A stretch of 64,000 bases of DNA from an uncultured bacterium (GTDB lineage: Bacteria; Patescibacteriota; Doudnabacteria; UBA920): contig CAVVMJ010000010.1 of NCBI GenBank assembly GCA_963749445.1, positions 117,738 through 181,737 of the forward strand. The letters run 5' to 3'. Numbering within the stretch: position 1 is the stretch's first letter; each line of letters starts with the position of its first letter. The notes under the pieces are model-generated. The model saw nothing but the letters and a program-made list of their open reading frames with translations, did not search any database and was not told the origin of the DNA. Position numbers and translations under genes: made by a program. Shown here piece by piece: positions 3,202 to 53,831 of the stretch.

Positions 3202-3696
3202 TGTTTTTTCCCTTAAATACAGGACTTACGTACTGGTTAAATCAATTTTAAATAAGGGATAAATTGGCATCATCGAGTAGAAAATCGAGTAGAAAGTACC
3301 ATATAAGATGCTTGATGATGGATTACAGAAAACCTTGATTCTATTAGCTTTTCTGAAAAATCAAAATCTGACCTTCATCGGTACTTTTGTTAGTCGACTG
3401 CCATATTAACGCTTATTTTAGGCTGAATTTGCCTCTGCGTAAGTCCTATTAAATATTAATAAAGAGTGCAAAAAATATTTACGTCAAAAAAAACTTTTTA
3501 CAAAGCTTTAATTTAACAAGCTCGCTTATGTTTTTAATTATAAGGGAAAATGAGATTCAAAGCAAACAACTTATGCACAACCTTATTTTTTTAAACTATA
3601 AATTTTGATTTTGTCAAAGACTGCCGGGCAAAAAGACTCCCGACTTCATCAACATCCTTGGCCTCAAGGCTGCGGGCAGTCAAGAGGCTTTGTCAG

Positions 3697-3995
3697 GCAA
3701 ACAACCCAAAAATTAATGGATATCTTCGTGGTTATTCAAACCGCAGCTGACATTTATCGCTATCCGATAATTATCAGCTGGAGGTTGATGAAAGTTCCCC
3801 GCAGCAGAGCTGCGAGGTATCGACTGCATACTGGTTCCATTCCGAGCGAGTCCCAAATAGCAGCTGAGGACGAGTCGAGGAATCTGTTACTAATTTAACA
3901 GACCCCTCCGCTCCTCCTCGGATGCACTCGTCGTCGGTCGGGGTGGAGCACCCCGGAGCCCAAATTTTCGAGGAAATCTATTTGATTATACCTCG
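3697..3995. repeat. GC-rich modular repeat (family shared with 55540-55800 and the dinB insert 25330-25500)
   Basis: About 80 percent identity to 55575-55700 over the core ttccattccgagcgagt...gcagctgaggacgag.cgaggaatct...ccctccgctcctcctcg...tcgtcggtcggg...cgaggaaat. Confidence 0.7.
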
Positions 3996-24322: not shown

Positions 24323-25834
24323 TCATAGCTCTTTGACGCGCCCAAAACCCACCGAGTCGCGGAAGGCTTTGCCGGCGGCCATCATTTGCGCCCGCAAAAC
24401 GGTAAATTCCCCGTATTTGTCGTTAATGTCATCCAGCGCTGCCACCAAAGCGCGCTGCCGCTCAATATCGCCGAATAAAGACATCTGATGAATATACGGG
24501 CGCAGGCCGGCCACGGTTACGCCGATCAATTTTATCCCTGCGACATTTATCGGATATATCCCCGTAGGGGCGGGTTTCAAACCCGCCCCTACGCCGGGCT
24601 TAATCATTTTTAGGCATTCCAGGAAAATCTCCCGCCCGTCCTGCAAAAAATATCTCAACTTTTTGCTGTCGCCGAAACCCTGATAATCTTTGTCGTGATA
24701 ATAACAGCTGATGACATTCCCCATTAACTGTTTCTTGCGCAACCGCCGGCCCACCATTTCGCAAAGCTTGTACAGCACGGGCACAAAAAATTCCGGTTTG
24801 CGGAATTCCTGCGGCAAGGTGTACATATGTCCCATGGATTTGATTTCTTGTTCCTGATGAACCTCGGCTTTCCAAGTGCCTTCCAGTTGGCCGAGATTAT
24901 ATAAATGATGACCCGCGACCCGACCAAAACGCGCCACCAAGTGGCTGCGAGGGAAATCCCGCAAGTCTTTTAAGGTTTTGATCCCCAGCTCGTTTAAATT
25001 CCGCTCCTGCCGCCGCCCGATGCCCGGGACGTCGGTAAGTTTAAGCTGATGATACAAATCACCCTTAGATAAAACAAGGCAATCGGCGCTGTAGGGGCGG
25101 ATATCATCCGCCCTTTGTCGTGGGAGGATAATATCCTCCCCTACGCAACCATTGTGAATCACCGTCAACCCATCCGGTTTTTTTAAATCCGACGCAATCT
25201 TGGCCAAAGCCTTATTATCGGCAATCCCAACGCTGCACCTGAGCCAATCCCCAACTTCGGTTTTAAACCGCCGCTTTATTTCCCGCGCAATGTTTGCCGC
25301 CTCTTCAAAGGGATCAATCGAAAATTGTCCCATCCCGACCAACGAGTGCATCCGACCCGTTCGGTTCAACTCAGGGTCGCCCTGAGCGTAGCCGAATGGG
25401 CGAGGAGTGGAGGGATCTGTCTGATATAATAGATCCCTCGGCTCATCCTCAGGTGCATTCGGATTCGCTCGGGATGGCGAAAAAAAATTCCTAACATTGC
25501 ACACCCTCGTCAAATCCAAAAAACACTCGTCAATGCTGTACTTTTCCACCTTGTCCGTATAATCGCCCACGACTTTTAAAAACCTCCTGGTGTAAAACCG
25601 GTATCGTTCGGCGTGAGTTTGGGTCAAAATAATCTTAGGATATAACTTTTTGGCTTCCCACACCGGCGTGCCGGTTTTGATGCCCCATTTTTTGGCCTCC
25701 ACAGACGCCGCGATAATAATGCCGCCCAAATGCTCGCACACGCCCACGGGCTTTCCGCGCCAACTCAAATTATCCTGCTGCTCCACAGAGGCAAAATACG
25801 AGTTCATATCCAGATGCATTATTATGGACTGCAT
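24323..25834 (-). CDS. dinB: DNA polymerase IV (Y-family) carrying three in-frame palindromic insertions
   Basis: MHLDMNSYFASVE...SIDECFLDLT...CSVGIADNKALAKIAS...; 503 aa against the usual ~360. The extra segments coincide with the repeats at 24563-24591, 25091-25144 and 25330-25500. Confidence 0.8.
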   Translation of the reverse strand: MQSIIMHLDMNSYFASVEQQDNLSWRGKPVGVCEHLGGIIIAASVEAKKWGIKTGTPVWEAKKLYPKIILTQTHAERYRFYTRRFLKVVGDYTDKVEKYSIDECFLDLTRVCNVRNFFSPSRANPNAPEDEPRDLLYQTDPSTPRPFGYAQGDPELNRTGRMHSLVGMGQFSIDPFEEAANIAREIKRRFKTEVGDWLRCSVGIADNKALAKIASDLKKPDGLTVIHNGCVGEDIILPRQRADDIRPYSADCLVLSKGDLYHQLKLTDVPGIGRRQERNLNELGIKTLKDLRDFPRSHLVARFGRVAGHHLYNLGQLEGTWKAEVHQEQEIKSMGHMYTLPQEFRKPEFFVPVLYKLCEMVGRRLRKKQLMGNVISCYYHDKDYQGFGDSKKLRYFLQDGREIFLECLKMIKPGVGAGLKPAPTGIYPINVAGIKLIGVTVAGLRPYIHQMSLFGDIERQRALVAALDDINDKYGEFTVLRAQMMAAGKAFRDSVGFGRVKEL

Positions 25835-33225: not shown

Positions 33226-33269
33226 TTTTTAGGCATATCAATTATTGTATCATTATCTTAAATACAATT

Positions 33270-33297
33270 GTAGGGGCGGGTCTAGACCCGCCCCTAC
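33270..33297. repeat. short perfect palindrome gtaggggcgggtctagacccgcccctac
   Basis: Same family as 24563-24591 and 25091-25144 (inside dinB) and 53803-53831. Confidence 0.75.
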
Positions 33298-33318
33298 AAA
33301 GCAATCCTTGATATATAA

Positions 33319-36280: not shown

Positions 36281-36369
36281 ATCTTTTGATAATTTAATAT
36301 CTAACTTTACTATAGCACAAAAAAACAGGCTTTGTTTGGTTTTCATTCTAAATCCCGCAAACTTTAGCG

Positions 36370-36900
36370 TCATTGTCCAATGACGACTGCAATTAACGTG
36401 AGCAAGCTTACCAAAATCGGAAACCAGACCTGCGCCAGCCACGGCACCGGGATTAAAAACAACACGTCGGGAGTGGTCCAGGAATCAGGCCATCTGATCA
36501 TCAGCCACGTGCCAATGTAAAAAAACAGGTCCCAAGTTGCAAACATCCAAAAAAATATCGCCCACCTTTCCCGGACTTGCTTGGCCGCCAAAAGCGCGAC
36601 GCTGGCCAGCATAACTATGGTTGCCGCTTCCCGATAAAGTTCAATGTCCAGCAAACTTTTAGGCAAGGCATTAACCACCTGGATCGCCGGATAGCCCGGC
36701 AGAACGCCCAAGGCGGCCCTTAAATAAACCACCACGCTGGCTTCCACAAAACCAAAAGCTATCCCAAAAATTCCGGCTATAATCAGCCGTCTTTTGGTTA
36801 AGGCCAAACCGCGTTTACGCCAAAACAAAGATAAACCTATTGGCACTAAAATTAACAAATTCACCCACCATGGTTTGGCAAAAAGCACAAAGCTATCCAT
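36370..36900 (-). CDS. hypothetical polytopic membrane protein
   Basis: 176 aa, about 5 TM helices. Confidence 0.5.
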   Translation of the reverse strand: MDSFVLFAKPWWVNLLILVPIGLSLFWRKRGLALTKRRLIIAGIFGIAFGFVEASVVVYLRAALGVLPGYPAIQVVNALPKSLLDIELYREAATIVMLASVALLAAKQVRERWAIFFWMFATWDLFFYIGTWLMIRWPDSWTTPDVLFLIPVPWLAQVWFPILVSLLTLIAVVIGQ

Positions 36901-36957
36901 ATGTTTTATTTCAACGCCTCAATGCCCGAAAGTTTCCGGCCGGCCTGACCCAATTTG

Positions 36958-36990
36958 GACAAATACTATCATACTACTGTGCATGATAGT
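36958..36990. repeat. hairpin-containing direct repeat A (ggacaaatactatcatactactgtgcatgatagt)
   Basis: Identical (one mismatch) to 37519-37552. Contains the palindrome ACTATCAT..ATGATAGT. Confidence 0.75.
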
Positions 36991-37534
36991 TTTTATCCAT
37001 TTTTAAAAGTCGGGTTAATTCTTTACTTAACTTAGTCTTCTCCTTCATCTGCTCAAGCGCCATGGTCAATTTTCGGCGTTGCTTGGCATTCGCGTTCCTG
37101 ATAATTTCATCCAACACCAATTCTGGCCAGTAATACATAGGATATCTCTTTTTGACTTTACTCCAAGATAAAGCACCATCATCAGATTTAGCCGGCTTTT
37201 CTTTTATTCTCCCGGCGATAACTCGATACCCTTCTCCGTACAAATTAAGCCAGGTGTGGACTCTCGCTATGGTGGTGTTACTGACTTTCATTTCCCTTTG
37301 GATGTCCTGATAGGTGCAATCCTCCAAAAGCAAACGGGCAATTTGCAGCCTCCGCGCAAGCATCACCACTTCGCCCTCCGACAACAAATCCTTTATAAAA
37401 TTTGCCGCCTCAACGGGATTCTTAATGGCCGCTAAGGCTTTTGCAAAACCAATAAACAATTCCTGCTGCTGTTCCTTTGTTAAATGTTTCTTTGCATCGT
37501 ATTTGCCCATAAAATTTTGGACAAATACTATCAT
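36974..37534 (-). CDS. TrpR/YerC-YecD-family DNA-binding protein with C-terminal extension
   Basis: ...EQQQELFIGFAKALAAIKNPVEAANFIKDLLSEGEVVMLARRLQIARLLLEDCTYQDIQREMKVSNTTIARV... matches the Trp-repressor-like fold family. The start and stop codons lie inside the two repeat copies. Confidence 0.65.
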   Translation of the reverse strand: MIVFVQNFMGKYDAKKHLTKEQQQELFIGFAKALAAIKNPVEAANFIKDLLSEGEVVMLARRLQIARLLLEDCTYQDIQREMKVSNTTIARVHTWLNLYGEGYRVIAGRIKEKPAKSDDGALSWSKVKKRYPMYYWPELVLDEIIRNANAKQRRKLTMALEQMKEKTKLSKELTRLLKMDKNYHAQ

Positions 37535-37552
37535 ACTACTGTGTATGATAGT
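37519..37552. repeat. hairpin-containing direct repeat A' (ggacaaatactatcatactactgtgtatgatagt)
   Basis: Direct copy of 36958-36990. Confidence 0.75.
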
Positions 37553-37576
37553 ATTTAACCACTTTTTGCCATTACT

Positions 37577-38801
37577 CTATTTCAACGCCTCAATGCCCGG
37601 CAATTTTTTGCCGGCCAGGTATTCCAGCATGGCGCCGCCGCCGGTGGAGACGTGGTCGATGTTTTCAAATTGGTGCGCCTGACGGACGGCGTCAACCGTG
37701 TCTCCGCCGCCGACCACGACAAACGCGCGGCCCTTGCCGCGGCCGCCGATGAGCCGCGCCAACGCCATAGTGGCGTGGTGAAAAGGCCTGACTTCAAACC
37801 GTCCTAAGGGGCCGCTCCACAAAATGGTTTTGGCTTTTTTGATTTCCTGGGCGAACGCCAAAATGGTTTTTGGGCCCGCGTCCAAAACCTGTTCTTTTTT
37901 GCCGATGTCATAAGGCGTAGCCACGCGGATGGTGTCTTTGTCCATTTTCTCATCCACCACCACCACGTCCAGCGGCAACATTAACTTGTCCTTATAATTC
38001 TTTTCAATTTCCCAGGCAACCTTTAGCTTCGCCTTCCTCAATTTTGGACAAACCGATCTCCAAACCTTTAGATTTAAACATCAAATTGGCCACTCCCCCG
38101 CCCACCAAAATTTTGTCCGCTTTTTTGCCCAAATTTTCCAATGCCCCGACTTTTTCCGAAAGCTTGATGCCGCCCGTCATCACCACAAACGGATGCTTAA
38201 CGCTTTTAAGCATCATATCCAAAGATTTGATTTCTTTTTCCAAAAGCAAACCGCAATAGCTATCCAAATACTTAGTCACGCCGACCGTGGACGCGGCCGC
38301 ACGATGGTCCACGCCGAACGCGTCATTAACGTAAACATCGGCAAAACTCGCCAATTTTTTGGCAAAAACCGGATCGTCTTTTTCTTCGCCTTCGTAAAAC
38401 CGTAAATTCTCCAGCAAAATAATGTCTTTGGCCGGCGCCATCCCAAGCTGCTCCTGATGTTTTTCTTCCAGAATATTTCCGGTATAAAAAATAAAATGGT
38501 TAATTTGGTATTCCGGCAGCTTATGGTCAGTCTCCAAAAATTTATAGCCCAGCATCTCAGCCATCAATTTGGCCACGGGCTCTAAACTAAATTGCGGGTC
38601 TTTTTTGCCCTTTGGCCGCCCCAAATGCCCGCAAACAATTACCGTATTGCCTGCTGCATGCAAATGTTTAATAGTCGGAATAATTTGCTCAATCCTAAAA
38701 GCGTCGTTAACCTTGCCATTATCAATCGGCACGTTTACGTCCACGCGCAGCAGGACGGTTTTATTTTGGATTTTGGATGTTCGCAAATATTTTATAGCCA
38801 T
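37577..38801 (-). CDS. pgk: phosphoglycerate kinase, reading frame broken by a 1-nt insertion near 38020
   Basis: N-terminal part MAIKYLRTSKIQNKTVLLRVDVNVP... ends at ...IEEGEAK and continues in the -1 frame as VAWEIEKNYKDKLMLPLDVVVV...GGGAMLEYL; context gaagctaaaggttgcc. Confidence 0.8.
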
Positions 38802-38810
38802 AAAAAATTA

Positions 38811-38896
38811 TGAATTTGCGAGGAGCCAGGGCTTTAACTGGCGACGAAGCAATCTCATTAAATATTGGGATTACTTAGGCTGCACTCGCAATTTCA
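38811..38896. mobile_element. MITE family 2 copy
   Basis: gaatttgcgaggagccagggctttaactggcgacgaagcaatctcat...ctgcactcgcaatttc. Confidence 0.8.
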
Positions 38897-39190
38897 ACCG
38901 AGTAATTTAGAATATAGATCTTCCCAATTAGGATTCATTTTATTTATTAAATCTATTTTCTTTTGCCTGGAACCGCCTTTGATTTGTTTTTCTCGTTCCA
39001 ACGCGGTATACATCTCCTCAAAAACTTCGTAATATACCAGCTTGTCTACGTTATATTTTTTAGTAAACCCCTTCACTATATGCTGTTTGTGTTGCCATGT
39101 TCTCTTTATTAGTCCGTTTGTAAATCCAGTATATAAAACCGTATGTCGTTGGTTGGTCAATATATAGATATAGAACTGTTCCGATATCAT
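38894..39190 (-). CDS. GIY-YIG nuclease-family protein (stand-alone, ~98 aa)
   Basis: FYIYILTNQRHTVLYTGFTNGLIKRTWQHK...YYEVF...ALEREKQIKGGSRQKK: GIY..YIG..R..E..N core. Confidence 0.75.
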   Translation of the reverse strand: MISEQFYIYILTNQRHTVLYTGFTNGLIKRTWQHKQHIVKGFTKKYNVDKLVYYEVFEEMYTALEREKQIKGGSRQKKIDLINKMNPNWEDLYSKLLG

Positions 39191-39206
39191 ACATTGTTTG
39201 GTATTA

Positions 39207-39245
39207 TCGGGATTGCTCCGTCGGCTGCACTCCTCGCAATTTCAG
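39207..39245. mobile_element. partial MITE family 2 copy (3' half)
   Basis: gggattgctccgtcggctgcactcctcgcaatttcagg. Confidence 0.6.
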
Positions 39246-40270
39246 GAATTTTTACCCACCATAATCGCTTCCTCCACTAACCGATGAGAATACCCATATT
39301 CATTATCGTACCACGCCACAACTTTGACCAAATTACCGTCAACGACCTGGGTCAGGGCGAGGTCAATAATGGATGAGGCAGGGTTGGCCACGATGTCTTG
39401 CAAAACAATTGGTTCATCCGTTACTTCCAAAATTCCTTTAAAACGGTCGGTTTTGGCAGCGCTGATGAAGGCTTGGTTGATTTCTTCTTTGGTGACATTT
39501 TTCTTGAGCAGCATCGTAAAATCCGACAAACTGCCAACCGGAGTCGGCACGCGGAATGACACGCCGTCAAATTTTCCTTTGAGCGACGGAATTGCCTGCG
39601 TAGCCGAAATGGCGGCGCCAGTCGTGGTGGGGATTATATTGATTGCCGCGGCGCGGGCGCGGCGCAAATCATTGGATTTTCCTCCCGGCGGCGGGCCGTC
39701 AACCAAATTTTGTTCGGCCGTGTAACTGTGAATGGTGGACATCAGCGCTTTTTCCACGCCAAAAGTTTCCTGCATAATCGCCAAAACCGGCGCGATGCAA
39801 TTGGTGGTGCAGGACGCACAACTGATAATGTTTTGGTCCGCGCGATATTTATCGGCATTAACCCCTAAGACAATCGTCGGCGTCACGCCTTCGTCTTTGG
39901 CCGGCGCGCTAATGACAACCTTTTTGGCTCCGGCCTTAAGATGAGCGCCCGCCTTTTCACTATCCGTAAACCGCCCCGTGCACTCTATCACGACTTCCAC
40001 GCCCAACTTTCCCCACGGTAGCATTGCCGGATCTTTTTCCGCGGACACCGGATACTTTTTGCCGTCAACGATAATATTGGTTTCGTCATGCTCGATTTTA
40101 CGATGATAGCGCCCGTAAACGCTGTCGTATTTTAACAAATGCGCTAAAACGGCGGTGGAAGTCAAATCGTTAATTCCTAAAACCTCAACCTCCTTACGTT
40201 CCAACGCCACTTTAAACGCCTGCCGCCCGATGCGGCCGAACCCGTTGATGCCTACTTTGACTTGCTTCAT
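39242..40270 (-). CDS. gap: glyceraldehyde-3-phosphate dehydrogenase
   Basis: MKQVKVGINGFGRIGR...SCTTNC... Confidence 0.9.
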   Translation of the reverse strand: MKQVKVGINGFGRIGRQAFKVALERKEVEVLGINDLTSTAVLAHLLKYDSVYGRYHRKIEHDETNIIVDGKKYPVSAEKDPAMLPWGKLGVEVVIECTGRFTDSEKAGAHLKAGAKKVVISAPAKDEGVTPTIVLGVNADKYRADQNIISCASCTTNCIAPVLAIMQETFGVEKALMSTIHSYTAEQNLVDGPPPGGKSNDLRRARAAAINIIPTTTGAAISATQAIPSLKGKFDGVSFRVPTPVGSLSDFTMLLKKNVTKEEINQAFISAAKTDRFKGILEVTDEPIVLQDIVANPASSIIDLALTQVVDGNLVKVVAWYDNEYGYSHRLVEEAIMVGKNS

Positions 40271-53802: not shown

Positions 53803-53831
53803 GTAGGGAACGGTTTGAAACCGTTCCCTAC
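53803..53831. repeat. perfect palindrome gtagggaacggtttgaaaccgttccctac
   Basis: Variant of the gtaggggcggg...cccgcccctac family. Confidence 0.7.

Follow-up and report, generated by a model that had tools for sequence, protein, structure and literature searches.

A TrpR/YerC-family regulator gene between twin palindromes behind pgk in an uncultured Doudnabacterium and its probable autoregulation

We analyzed a 64,000-nt stretch of DNA (the window) from an uncultured bacterium of the Doudnabacteria (Patescibacteriota), in which a gene for a TrpR-like regulator lies behind the gene for phosphoglycerate kinase (pgk) and is bracketed by two nearly identical palindromes, P1 before the gene and P2 at its end. 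When read along the gene strand, the functional 3' end of pgk (A) was followed by P1, the regulator gene, P2, a displaced copy of the pgk end (A') and the next gene, which encodes a membrane protein; this order indicates that the arrangement is not a simple tandem duplication. Enolase, gpmI and recJ came next past the membrane-protein gene, all on the minus strand. The coordinates are collected in Table 1.

Table 1. Features of the regulator locus and its surroundings, in positions of the window
Feature	Positions	Strand	Basis or remark
gap	39242-40270	minus	gene order
GIY-YIG small open reading frame	38894-39190	minus	between gap and pgk
pgk (phosphoglycerate kinase)	37577-38801	minus	Pfam PGK on two open reading frames
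A, functional pgk 3' end, …LAGKKLPGIEALK then stop	37577-37618	minus	contains hairpin GCCGGCAA-aaaa-TTGCCGGG
P1, upstream palindrome	37516-37566 (core 37518-37561)	no strand	predicted promoter-embedded operator
TrpR/YerC-family regulator, 178 aa	36974-37510	minus	Pfam/TIGR match, homologue starts
P2, downstream palindrome	36954-37004 (core 36956-36999)	no strand	predicted auxiliary/roadblock operator
A', non-coding and displaced duplicate of the pgk 3' end, …AGRKLSGIEALK then stop	36906-36945	minus	self-match to A
176-aa membrane protein	36370-36900	minus	variable slot between module and enolase

The repeat GGACAAATACTATCATACTACTGTG(C/T)ATGATAGT, 34 nt long, was present in exactly two copies in the 64 kb (36957-36990 and 37519-37552) and was found in 0 of 100 shuffles; it could be extended to 51 nt at 92% identity, up to the outer limits of P2 and P1 in Table 1. 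Each copy formed a 44-bp near-palindrome with the centre ACAGTA on the gene strand and with arms of 17-19 nt that were 88-89% complementary (36956-36972/36983-36999 in P2, 37518-37536/37543-37561 in P1). The predicted RNA folds of the two copies reached -21 to -22 kcal/mol (z = -7.8 and -8.5). An earlier note on this DNA, made from the letters of the window, had described a repeat of about 33 bp at both ends of the gene, a palindrome in each copy, and both the start and the stop codon within the repeat. The repeat and the palindromes were recovered, with arms longer than the note had given. The stop codon TAG (36974-36976) was indeed located at the centre of P2, whose left arm codes for the last residues of the regulator (…KNYHAQ), but the start codon was outside the repeat: P1 ended 8 nt before the true ATG (37508-37510). 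The ATG at 37532-37534 is part of the P1 arm ATGATAGT and is almost certainly not the start, because all homologues begin with M-G/S/A-K-Y/F at the equivalent of 37508-37510. No further copy of the site (full site, arms only or inner core) was found in the 64-kb window beyond P1 and P2, indicating that its action appears to be local. P1 and P2 were approximately 94% identical between the window and locus L001, the closest relative, despite saturated synonymous sites (dS >1).

Translation from the conserved start gave a regulator of 178 aa, and an identical database protein, encoded on a 372-kb contig, also had 178 aa. It matched the Pfam family PF01371 (Trp_repressor) with 53.1 bits (cutoff 27, E = 3.5e-14) and the YerC/YecD family of TrpR-related proteins (TIGR02531, yecD_yerC) with 52.5 bits against a cutoff of 42.2, in agreement with the TrpR-like assignment of the earlier note. 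The TrpR equivalog TIGR01321 scored only 21 bits, far under its cutoff of 67, showing that the regulator is not TrpR proper. A profile of 19 homologues matched the YerC-like structures 3frw, 3kor and 3g1c at about 1e-14 among PDB sequences. In the AlphaFold2 model, residues 10-100 had a predicted local distance difference test score (pLDDT) of about 90 and formed an N-terminal TrpR-like helix-turn-helix domain (about 10-101), for which the best Foldseek matches were 3frw, 3g1c and 3kor with template modeling (TM) scores of 0.70-0.81 (target-length normalized); E. coli TrpR (1tro) scored 0.66-0.70. By both sequence and predicted fold, the protein thus belongs to the TrpR/YerC(HisR) repressor family.

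Residues 105-178 (approximately) formed a helical C-terminal extension with the conserved motif K-x-YPMY[FY]WPE, modeled at low confidence (pLDDT 53-72). These C-terminal 75 aa or so were conserved among homologues, with invariant residues including K120, P124, W128 and P129. When the extension alone was searched against 1.8 billion representative proteins, nearly all matches were the C-termini of proteins of about 170-190 aa with the same architecture, the exceptions being fragments, one ComM-fusion chimera and two multi-stretch matches of about 1,500 aa (P0091, P0110). The C-terminal helical domain is a candidate oligomerization module. The regulator gene is under strong purifying selection: dN/dS was 0.04 against L001 and 0.09 for the C-terminal part, with dS >1. 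The regulator showed neither a nuclease or recombinase domain nor an invariant Tyr or Ser that could serve as nucleophile, and the window contained no other paralogue of it. The family had no matches in PHROGs, PADLOC or IMG/VR viral contigs, indicating that it is not a phage family or a known defence family. Searches of one literature library for YerC or TrpR in the candidate phyla radiation (CPR) or Patescibacteria found no description of this regulator family, and the regulator belongs to a CPR-specific and apparently undescribed "long-form" branch of the TrpR/YerC(HisR) family. In the chimeric open reading frame P0088 (350 aa, from the representative proteins), truncated N-terminal ChlI/Mg-chelatase (ComM/YifB-like) domains were fused with the C-terminal half of a protein of the TrpR-like family, which reflects either the insertion of a module into a comM-like gene or an assembly artefact.

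A scan with one genome per species recovered 68 loci of the family in Doudnabacteria, Levybacteria, Gottesmanbacteria, Moranbacteria and other Parcubacteria, and a single genome had as many as three paralogues (loci, with or without the gene, are cited here by L numbers). In the 63 loci that could be analyzed, the 150 nt before the start were compared with the region around the stop by best local match. The median score was 48 and 55 of the 63 loci scored at least 30, compared with a median of 19 for mismatched locus pairs, in which the few high scores presumably came from related lineages. Homologues at 58-87% protein identity, mostly from metagenomic Candidatus Doudnabacteria, had the same succession of pgk end, palindrome, gene and palindrome over the stop; some of them also had the pgk-end copy, and the gene after it varied. 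Distant homologues located after secY plus a HIT/HAD gene or before mnmA were still bracketed by twin palindromes, with a different palindrome sequence.

The core geometry xxACT-N4-AGTxx was constant while the arms differed between lineages (e.g., ATACT-ACGT-AGTAT and CATACT-TGGT-AGTATG, or GCTAC-AT-AGC… in Levybacteria). P1 resembled P2 within a genome, and across lineages the arms changed together with the recognition helix (VSNTT with ATCATAC, VGNST with CTCCCATAC, VSHGT with xxCTAC), which is the pattern expected of an operator co-evolving with its own regulator. Paralogues of one genome carried different palindromes. The unpaired centre measured 0-10 nt across the family, and perfect palindromes of 56 nt were present at P2 of L013/L023. 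As a separate observation, the non-palindromic centre was reverse-complemented between P1 and P2 in L019 (=L009), L037 and L045 (e.g., tggt vs acca); the whole palindrome or its spacer is inverted at one of the two sites.

Promoter elements and positions were scored over 33 P1 and 33 P2 sites. In lineages with a recognizable sigma-70-type promoter, a perfect TTGACA adjoined the left arm of P1 and was followed, after 17 nt, by TAGTAT or TATCAT from the right half of the core, as in 7 of the 33 P1 sites; further examples of this frame were seen at P1 of L073 and L022. At least 10 of 12 promoter positions matched in these 7 P1 sites, compared with 0.6% of random positions, whereas no P2 site reached that level and P2 was without a -35 element. 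A median of 32 nt separated the P1 centre from the ATG. The left edge of P2 had a median position of -1 nt from the regulator stop, with 26 of 33 within +12 nt, and P2 was retained where the downstream gene was convergent (L045, L065, L069, L073, L075). P2 therefore belongs to the regulator gene and not to the next gene, since it tracks the stop codon and is kept with a convergent neighbor. With this layout, covariation and promoter frame, the palindrome behaves in comparative data like the regulator's operator, as the earlier note had thought plausible.

Signs of a function in RNA were also sought. A terminator scan did not call P1 or P2, a T-rich tail followed only 3 of 33 P1 and 3 of 33 P2 sites, and the median GC content of the stems was approximately 30%; an intrinsic terminator was rejected for want of a GC-rich stem with a U tract. 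When positions 36300-38100 were searched against Rfam at a permissive E-value, only a chance miRNA match was obtained. Enrichment of G-U wobble pairs as a sign of RNA structure was absent, G-T accounting for 14 of 84 broken pairs.

The earlier note had also reported a copy of about 40 bp of the pgk 3' end upstream of the membrane-protein gene, and this was borne out: A' (36907-36945) matched A (37578-37616) over 39 nt without gaps at 85% identity, 22 nt being exact, and 0 of 100 shuffles matched. The true pgk end translates to YLAGKKLPGIEALK before its stop and A' to GQAGRKLSGIEALK before its own, and only 5 nt separated the TAA of A' from the ATG of the membrane-protein gene. No third copy of the pgk end was found near enolase. 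Read-through of the regulator into A' was considered and rejected, the two being in different reading frames and 68 nt apart. Close pgk relatives without the module provided empty sites (L088, L089/L090, L091), in which the pgk stop was 2-5 nt before the next start and the junction matched the A'-ATG junction of the window. This likeness identifies A' as the former pgk terminus. Between the window and L001, the 3' half of A' was identical at 18 of 19 positions although dS exceeded 1.

These comparisons also bear on how the module came to be there, for which the earlier note had proposed an insertion of about 620 bp that duplicated its target, brought about by site-specific integration or reflecting a self-regulating regulator that has an operator on either side. 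An historical insertion next to pgk is supported by the empty sites, but a recent event in this genome is not, because relatives share the layout: those at 58-87% identity had the same palindromes, and several lineages had the same pgk-end copy with the same boundary, the outcome that the earlier note had named as refuting its proposal. Target duplication was absent beyond the pgk context in approximately 50 other loci and was present only in the window, L001, L005/L006/L018 and L021; as a feature restricted to the pgk clade, it does not mark the module in general. Site-specific integration was not supported, since the palindromes flank family members in other contexts without target duplication and are thus not insertion scars or attachment sites. 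No integrase, recombinase or transposase was found in or near the unit, in which the TrpR-like gene was the only open reading frame of coding quality, though a recombinase may have acted in trans. Of the two proposals, comparative data favor the self-regulating regulator.

The locus has nevertheless not been static, and in some lineages the module was replaced or independently acquired. L005 and L021 were 93% identical in GAPDH and 87-95% in PGK, but their regulators were only 57% identical and had different palindrome types; the regulators of the window and L001 were 87% identical at a similar housekeeping distance. L091, the nearest sampled relative of L005 and L021, was empty. A' of L005 equaled the pgk end of L021 at 36 of 39 positions with perfect coding potential, while A of L005 resembled that of L001, and L021 had its own, shorter relic of a pgk end. 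L005 and L006 were 99.3% identical overall with a divergent patch that spanned the pgk end and P1, and the 3' part of A in L006 was identical to A', indicating gene conversion. In L022, a hicB/hicA-like pair (80 and 75 aa, identified by eye) was inserted in the pgk 3' end (2285-2905), followed by a full-length second pgk end from the same GCCGGCAAAAA boundary and then by about 27 nt resembling the start of the membrane gene; the PGK C-terminus was altered to …GIEALAQHHLS. The simplest account of these patterns would be horizontal exchange, in which recombination was anchored in pgk and joined illegitimately at the other end, with conversion and selection acting afterwards.

The neighbors of the regulator gene were nearly always co-directional with very short gaps. 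It followed PGK in 10 loci, with enolase coming directly after it or after small membrane genes; it was located between SHMT (serine hydroxymethyltransferase) and glycerate kinase of the DUF4147/MOFRL type in 6 loci, between secY-HIT/HAD and Zincin_1 in 4, and between G6PD and 6PGD in 2. Neighboring genes included pgk, eno, gpmI, SHMT, glycerate kinase, G6PD, 6PGD and similar genes, and no trp or his genes. The contexts formed mostly coherent, monophyletic clades in a neighbor-joining tree of the regulators, which favors long-lived, operon-dedicated paralogues over a promiscuous element.

Taken together, we give a probability of roughly 60% to an autoregulated repressor that has a promoter operator at P1 and an auxiliary or roadblock operator at its 3' end (P2), within a chromosomal module and not a recent integration. 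A dimer of the protein would bind the inverted half-sites in the cores of both palindromes. P1 would be placed within the promoter of the regulator gene, where it lies between the -35 and -10 elements or covers part of the -10, so that occupancy would repress the gene. P2, which starts at or just before the stop codon, would be a second operator without a promoter, which may cooperate with P1 by looping over about 560 bp, perhaps through the C-terminal helical domain, or may alternatively stop RNA polymerase where the gene ends. In both cases, the protein would limit its own synthesis and the read-through to the membrane protein, enolase and gpmI, like LacI at O3. As paralogues are located inside central-carbon operons, the family probably gates operon-distal genes through a small ligand. 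The module would have arrived with a replacement pgk terminus, or created one, at a junction with 2-5 nt between stop and start, where survival would have required that pgk stay complete and that the next gene retain its native upstream sequence; the similarity of A and A' may since have been preserved by gene conversion, by constraint acting on the 3' half of A', or by both.

Several observations weigh against an autoregulated repressor with two operators. One clade (L029, L036, L041, L043, with the same downstream gene cluster C4) had no detectable twin palindromes, scoring 14-19. At 34-56 bp, the palindromes exceed the size of one TrpR-type dimer site. The outer arms of P1 and P2 differed by 20 compensated, symmetry-preserving changes against roughly 2 expected by a rough estimate; together with the perfect 56-nt palindromes at P2, this indicates that self-complementarity as such is maintained, and either selection for a cruciform or hairpin or conversion and homogenization from arm to arm may be responsible. 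P1 of the window itself matched a promoter weakly (ATGGCA-16-TATCAT at 37572-37545, 9 of 12 positions at best, or TGGTTA-17-TAGTAT). The P1-P2 distances showed no helical phasing (R about 0.06), although none would be expected at about 560 bp. Tetramerization is only a guess, because the C-terminal domain was modeled at pLDDT 53-72. Finally, the turnover of modules between close relatives means that the unit is also horizontally exchangeable.

That turnover is one ground for reading P1, the gene and P2, with or without the pgk-end segment, as a non-autonomous integrative unit that enters the 3' ends of conserved operon genes and duplicates the target end. Site-specific or hairpin-directed recombination would then use the palindromes or the A segment as recombination sites, and the pgk 3' end as an attachment hot spot. 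Empty-site relatives have a pgk as near to that of the window as the module-bearing genomes do, and the contrast between L005 and L021 with L091 empty, the match of L005 A' to the L021 pgk end, the patch across the pgk end and P1 in L005/L006, the hicBA pair at the same pgk end with a second copy from the GCCGGCAAAAA boundary in L022, the flipped palindrome centres of L019, L037 and L045, and a neighboring GIY-YIG gene that also lies between direct repeats would all suit such a unit. We nevertheless think it unlikely. The unit and its surroundings lack an integrase or transposase and the protein lacks recombinase features; the family is not found in viral contigs, PHROGs or PADLOC; duplication of the upstream gene end is limited to the pgk clade, and its lengths (about 22, 32 and 39 nt) do not fit a fixed stagger. 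The contexts are largely monophyletic and paralogues in the same genome differ in their palindromes, whose centre of 0-10 nt with constant N4 spacing of the half-sites is unlike the core sites of tyrosine recombinases. Illegitimate recombination facilitated by homology, with selection for an intact pgk and next gene, accounts for the duplication without dedicated machinery. A broader version, which we consider quite unlikely, would have the twin-palindrome TrpR-like unit as a self-contained, exchangeable "regulated gate" that recurrently colonizes tight operon junctions of central metabolism in CPR bacteria, with the palindromes or the GC hairpin of the pgk end directing recombination and the pgk 3' end being a recurrent landing site also for hicBA. 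If true, operon regulation would be rewired by cassettes that move without an integrase, a new kind of mobility.

Other explanations keep the gene in place and differ in what the palindromes do. P2 could be the operator of a separate downstream promoter, the pair then being an ordinary tandem of regulator and target with neither looping nor roadblock. In many loci P2 does adjoin the next start at a distance like that of P1; the similarity continues through the spacer to the ATG in L011/L020, an extended -10 (TGGTATAAT / TGCTATAAT) follows P2 in L030 and L031, and P2 of the window reads TGGATA-17-TAGTAT. We think this unlikely, however, in view of the P2 sites kept beside convergent genes, the absence of any P2 at 10 of 12 promoter matches (compared with 7 of 33 for P1) and a position of P2 that follows the regulator stop while the downstream gene varies among relatives. 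The palindromes might also act in RNA, as hairpins (terminators or attenuators, RNase III-type processing sites, or 5'/3' stabilizers) that separate the regulator mRNA from those of pgk and enolase and resemble each other through gene conversion. The predicted hairpins are strong (z about -8), the compensated arm differences are in excess, the perfect palindromes at P2 of L013/L023 are very long, the palindromes occupy the intergenic gaps on both sides of the gene, and P2 of L073 has a GC-richer stem followed by TTTTGT. We consider an RNA function very unlikely, given the scarcity of T-rich tails, the low stem GC, the negative terminator scan, the lack of an Rfam family match and G-T mismatches that show no tolerance of wobble. 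That the centre is flipped in some P1-P2 pairs speaks for a strand-symmetric function in DNA. The inner core agrees with TrpR-type half-sites and varies in step with the recognition helix, and P1 is set in a precise -35/-10 frame.

The proposed autoregulated repressor has close counterparts among known systems. YerC of B. subtilis is HisR, a histidine-dependent repressor with 20-bp palindromic operators, and the half-site of TrpR is GNACT; trpR and about half of the hisR genes have an operator before their own gene (PMC9413887). The regulator described here has the same DNA-binding fold and inverted xxACT half-sites that can be set beside GNACT and the HisR palindromes, and the operator before its own gene would likewise imply autoregulation. 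It departs from the TrpR/YerC(HisR) family in its size of 178 aa with an extra C-terminal helical domain, in contrast to single-domain proteins of about 90-110 aa; in the two operators that bracket the gene, the palindromes being longer (34-56 bp); in the up to three paralogues per small genome; and in its association with central-carbon operons of glycolysis, the pentose-phosphate pathway and serine-glycerate metabolism instead of trp or his genes.

For the 3' operator, the nearest parallel is the lac repressor with its auxiliary operators and O1-O3 looping. LacI acts as a roadblock at O3 at the 3' end of lacI, giving truncated lacI mRNA and SsrA tagging (PMC3711431). Here, too, an operator at the very end of the repressor coding region accompanies one at the promoter, and it is predicted to halt RNA polymerase at the stop codon or ahead of it and to act jointly with the promoter operator. 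The two systems differ in the protein family, in that the 3' operator here is as good a copy as the promoter one, and in that the regulated promoter is the regulator's own.

CggR of Bacillus subtilis is a repressor encoded in the gapA-pgk-tpi-pgm-eno operon. The regulator here may be likened to it, as its gene is also part of a glycolytic cluster that it presumably tunes. CggR differs in its SorC/DeoR family, in being encoded by the first gene of its operon, in its tandem binding sites ahead of that operon and in its response to fructose-1,6-bisphosphate.

Mobile systems offer looser parallels. Elements that integrate at gene 3' ends, regenerate them and are flanked by attL and attR, together with derivatives that have lost the integrase, share with this locus the target-end copies of about 40 bp on both sides, the intact target, the empty sites and a second insert (hicBA in L022), but here there is no integrase, the cargo is only about 0.6 kb, the duplication varies in length and other contexts are without it. 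One small gene between copies of an imperfect palindrome also recalls integron attC and pdif-Xer cassettes; the palindrome here is, in contrast, lineage-specific, with a fixed N4 instead of a 6-8 bp crossover, without arrays or attC R/L-boxes, and its upstream copy is a promoter. The 14-6-14 layout in the window is similar to lox, dif and pdif sites, but the centre of 0-10 nt across the family with constant N4 spacing of ACT and AGT sets it apart from them.

To our knowledge, CPR bacteria cannot be grown alone and their transcriptional regulation is almost wholly unknown. The family provides a testable pair of cis and trans elements in several CPR phyla, often with 2-3 paralogues per genome, each having a predictable operator. 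If confirmed, central metabolism in CPR bacteria would gain its first operator code and promoter model, and control in the style of lacI-O3, exerted where a repressor gene ends, would have a natural second example. How genes enter near-gapless junctions without breaking their neighbors is further shown by the footprint of the pgk end, the empty sites and the swapped modules.

The surrounding genes of the window and its relatives were also variable. The pgk of the window was split by a +1 frameshift near 38018-38024 into open reading frames at 38004-38801 and 37577-38041, which matched positions 4-236 and 236-379 of the Pfam PGK profile, respectively. In three-frame translation the frame switched from KIEEGEAK to VAWEIEKN at a single extra base. 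All relatives, unlike the window, had an intact pgk of approximately 406 aa, and the frameshift is either an assembly error or a real pseudogene. The 176-aa membrane protein had no family match and no homologue at the relatives' loci. In relatives, membrane proteins with lycopene-cyclase domains followed the module, or followed pgk directly in the empty L091, either as two halves of about 100 aa or fused (L001 2765-3565; L002 6023-6644; L091 436-1075); the protein of the window is unrelated to them. The downstream enolases fell into two classes with 69-81% or 43-48% identity to the enolase of the window (L002, L005, L016, L030 and L092 vs the window, L001, L009 and L022). These classes were out of step with pgk and gap similarity, which suggests that eno was replaced by a divergent copy in some lineages.

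On the other side of pgk, the GIY-YIG open reading frame was bracketed by direct repeats of approximately 35-40 nt (38863-38896 and 39205-39244; TGAAATTGC…GAGTGCAGCC…AATCCC.ATA) with a score of 35 compared with a shuffle maximum of 21. Each of these repeats started at the TGA stop of the preceding gene, making this a second small repeat-flanked cassette in the same operon. In L005/L006 the slot between gap and pgk held a PDDEXK_3 nuclease-like gene with inverted repeats of about 42 nt (3250-3290 and 3676-3717), which was missing from the otherwise near-identical L007; elsewhere the slot held a GIY-YIG gene or a 96-aa open reading frame without known function. The gap-pgk junction is thus a variable slot for small nuclease genes. 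A family of perfect GC-rich palindromes, GTAGGGGCGGGT.T…A.ACCCGCCCCTAC, was further represented three times in the window (24563-24593, 33268-33299 and 53803-53831), with arms of 14-16 nt and a centre of 0-1 nt. At least one copy was intergenic, between gpmI and recJ, and the family may represent elements like repetitive extragenic palindromes (REP) or terminators.

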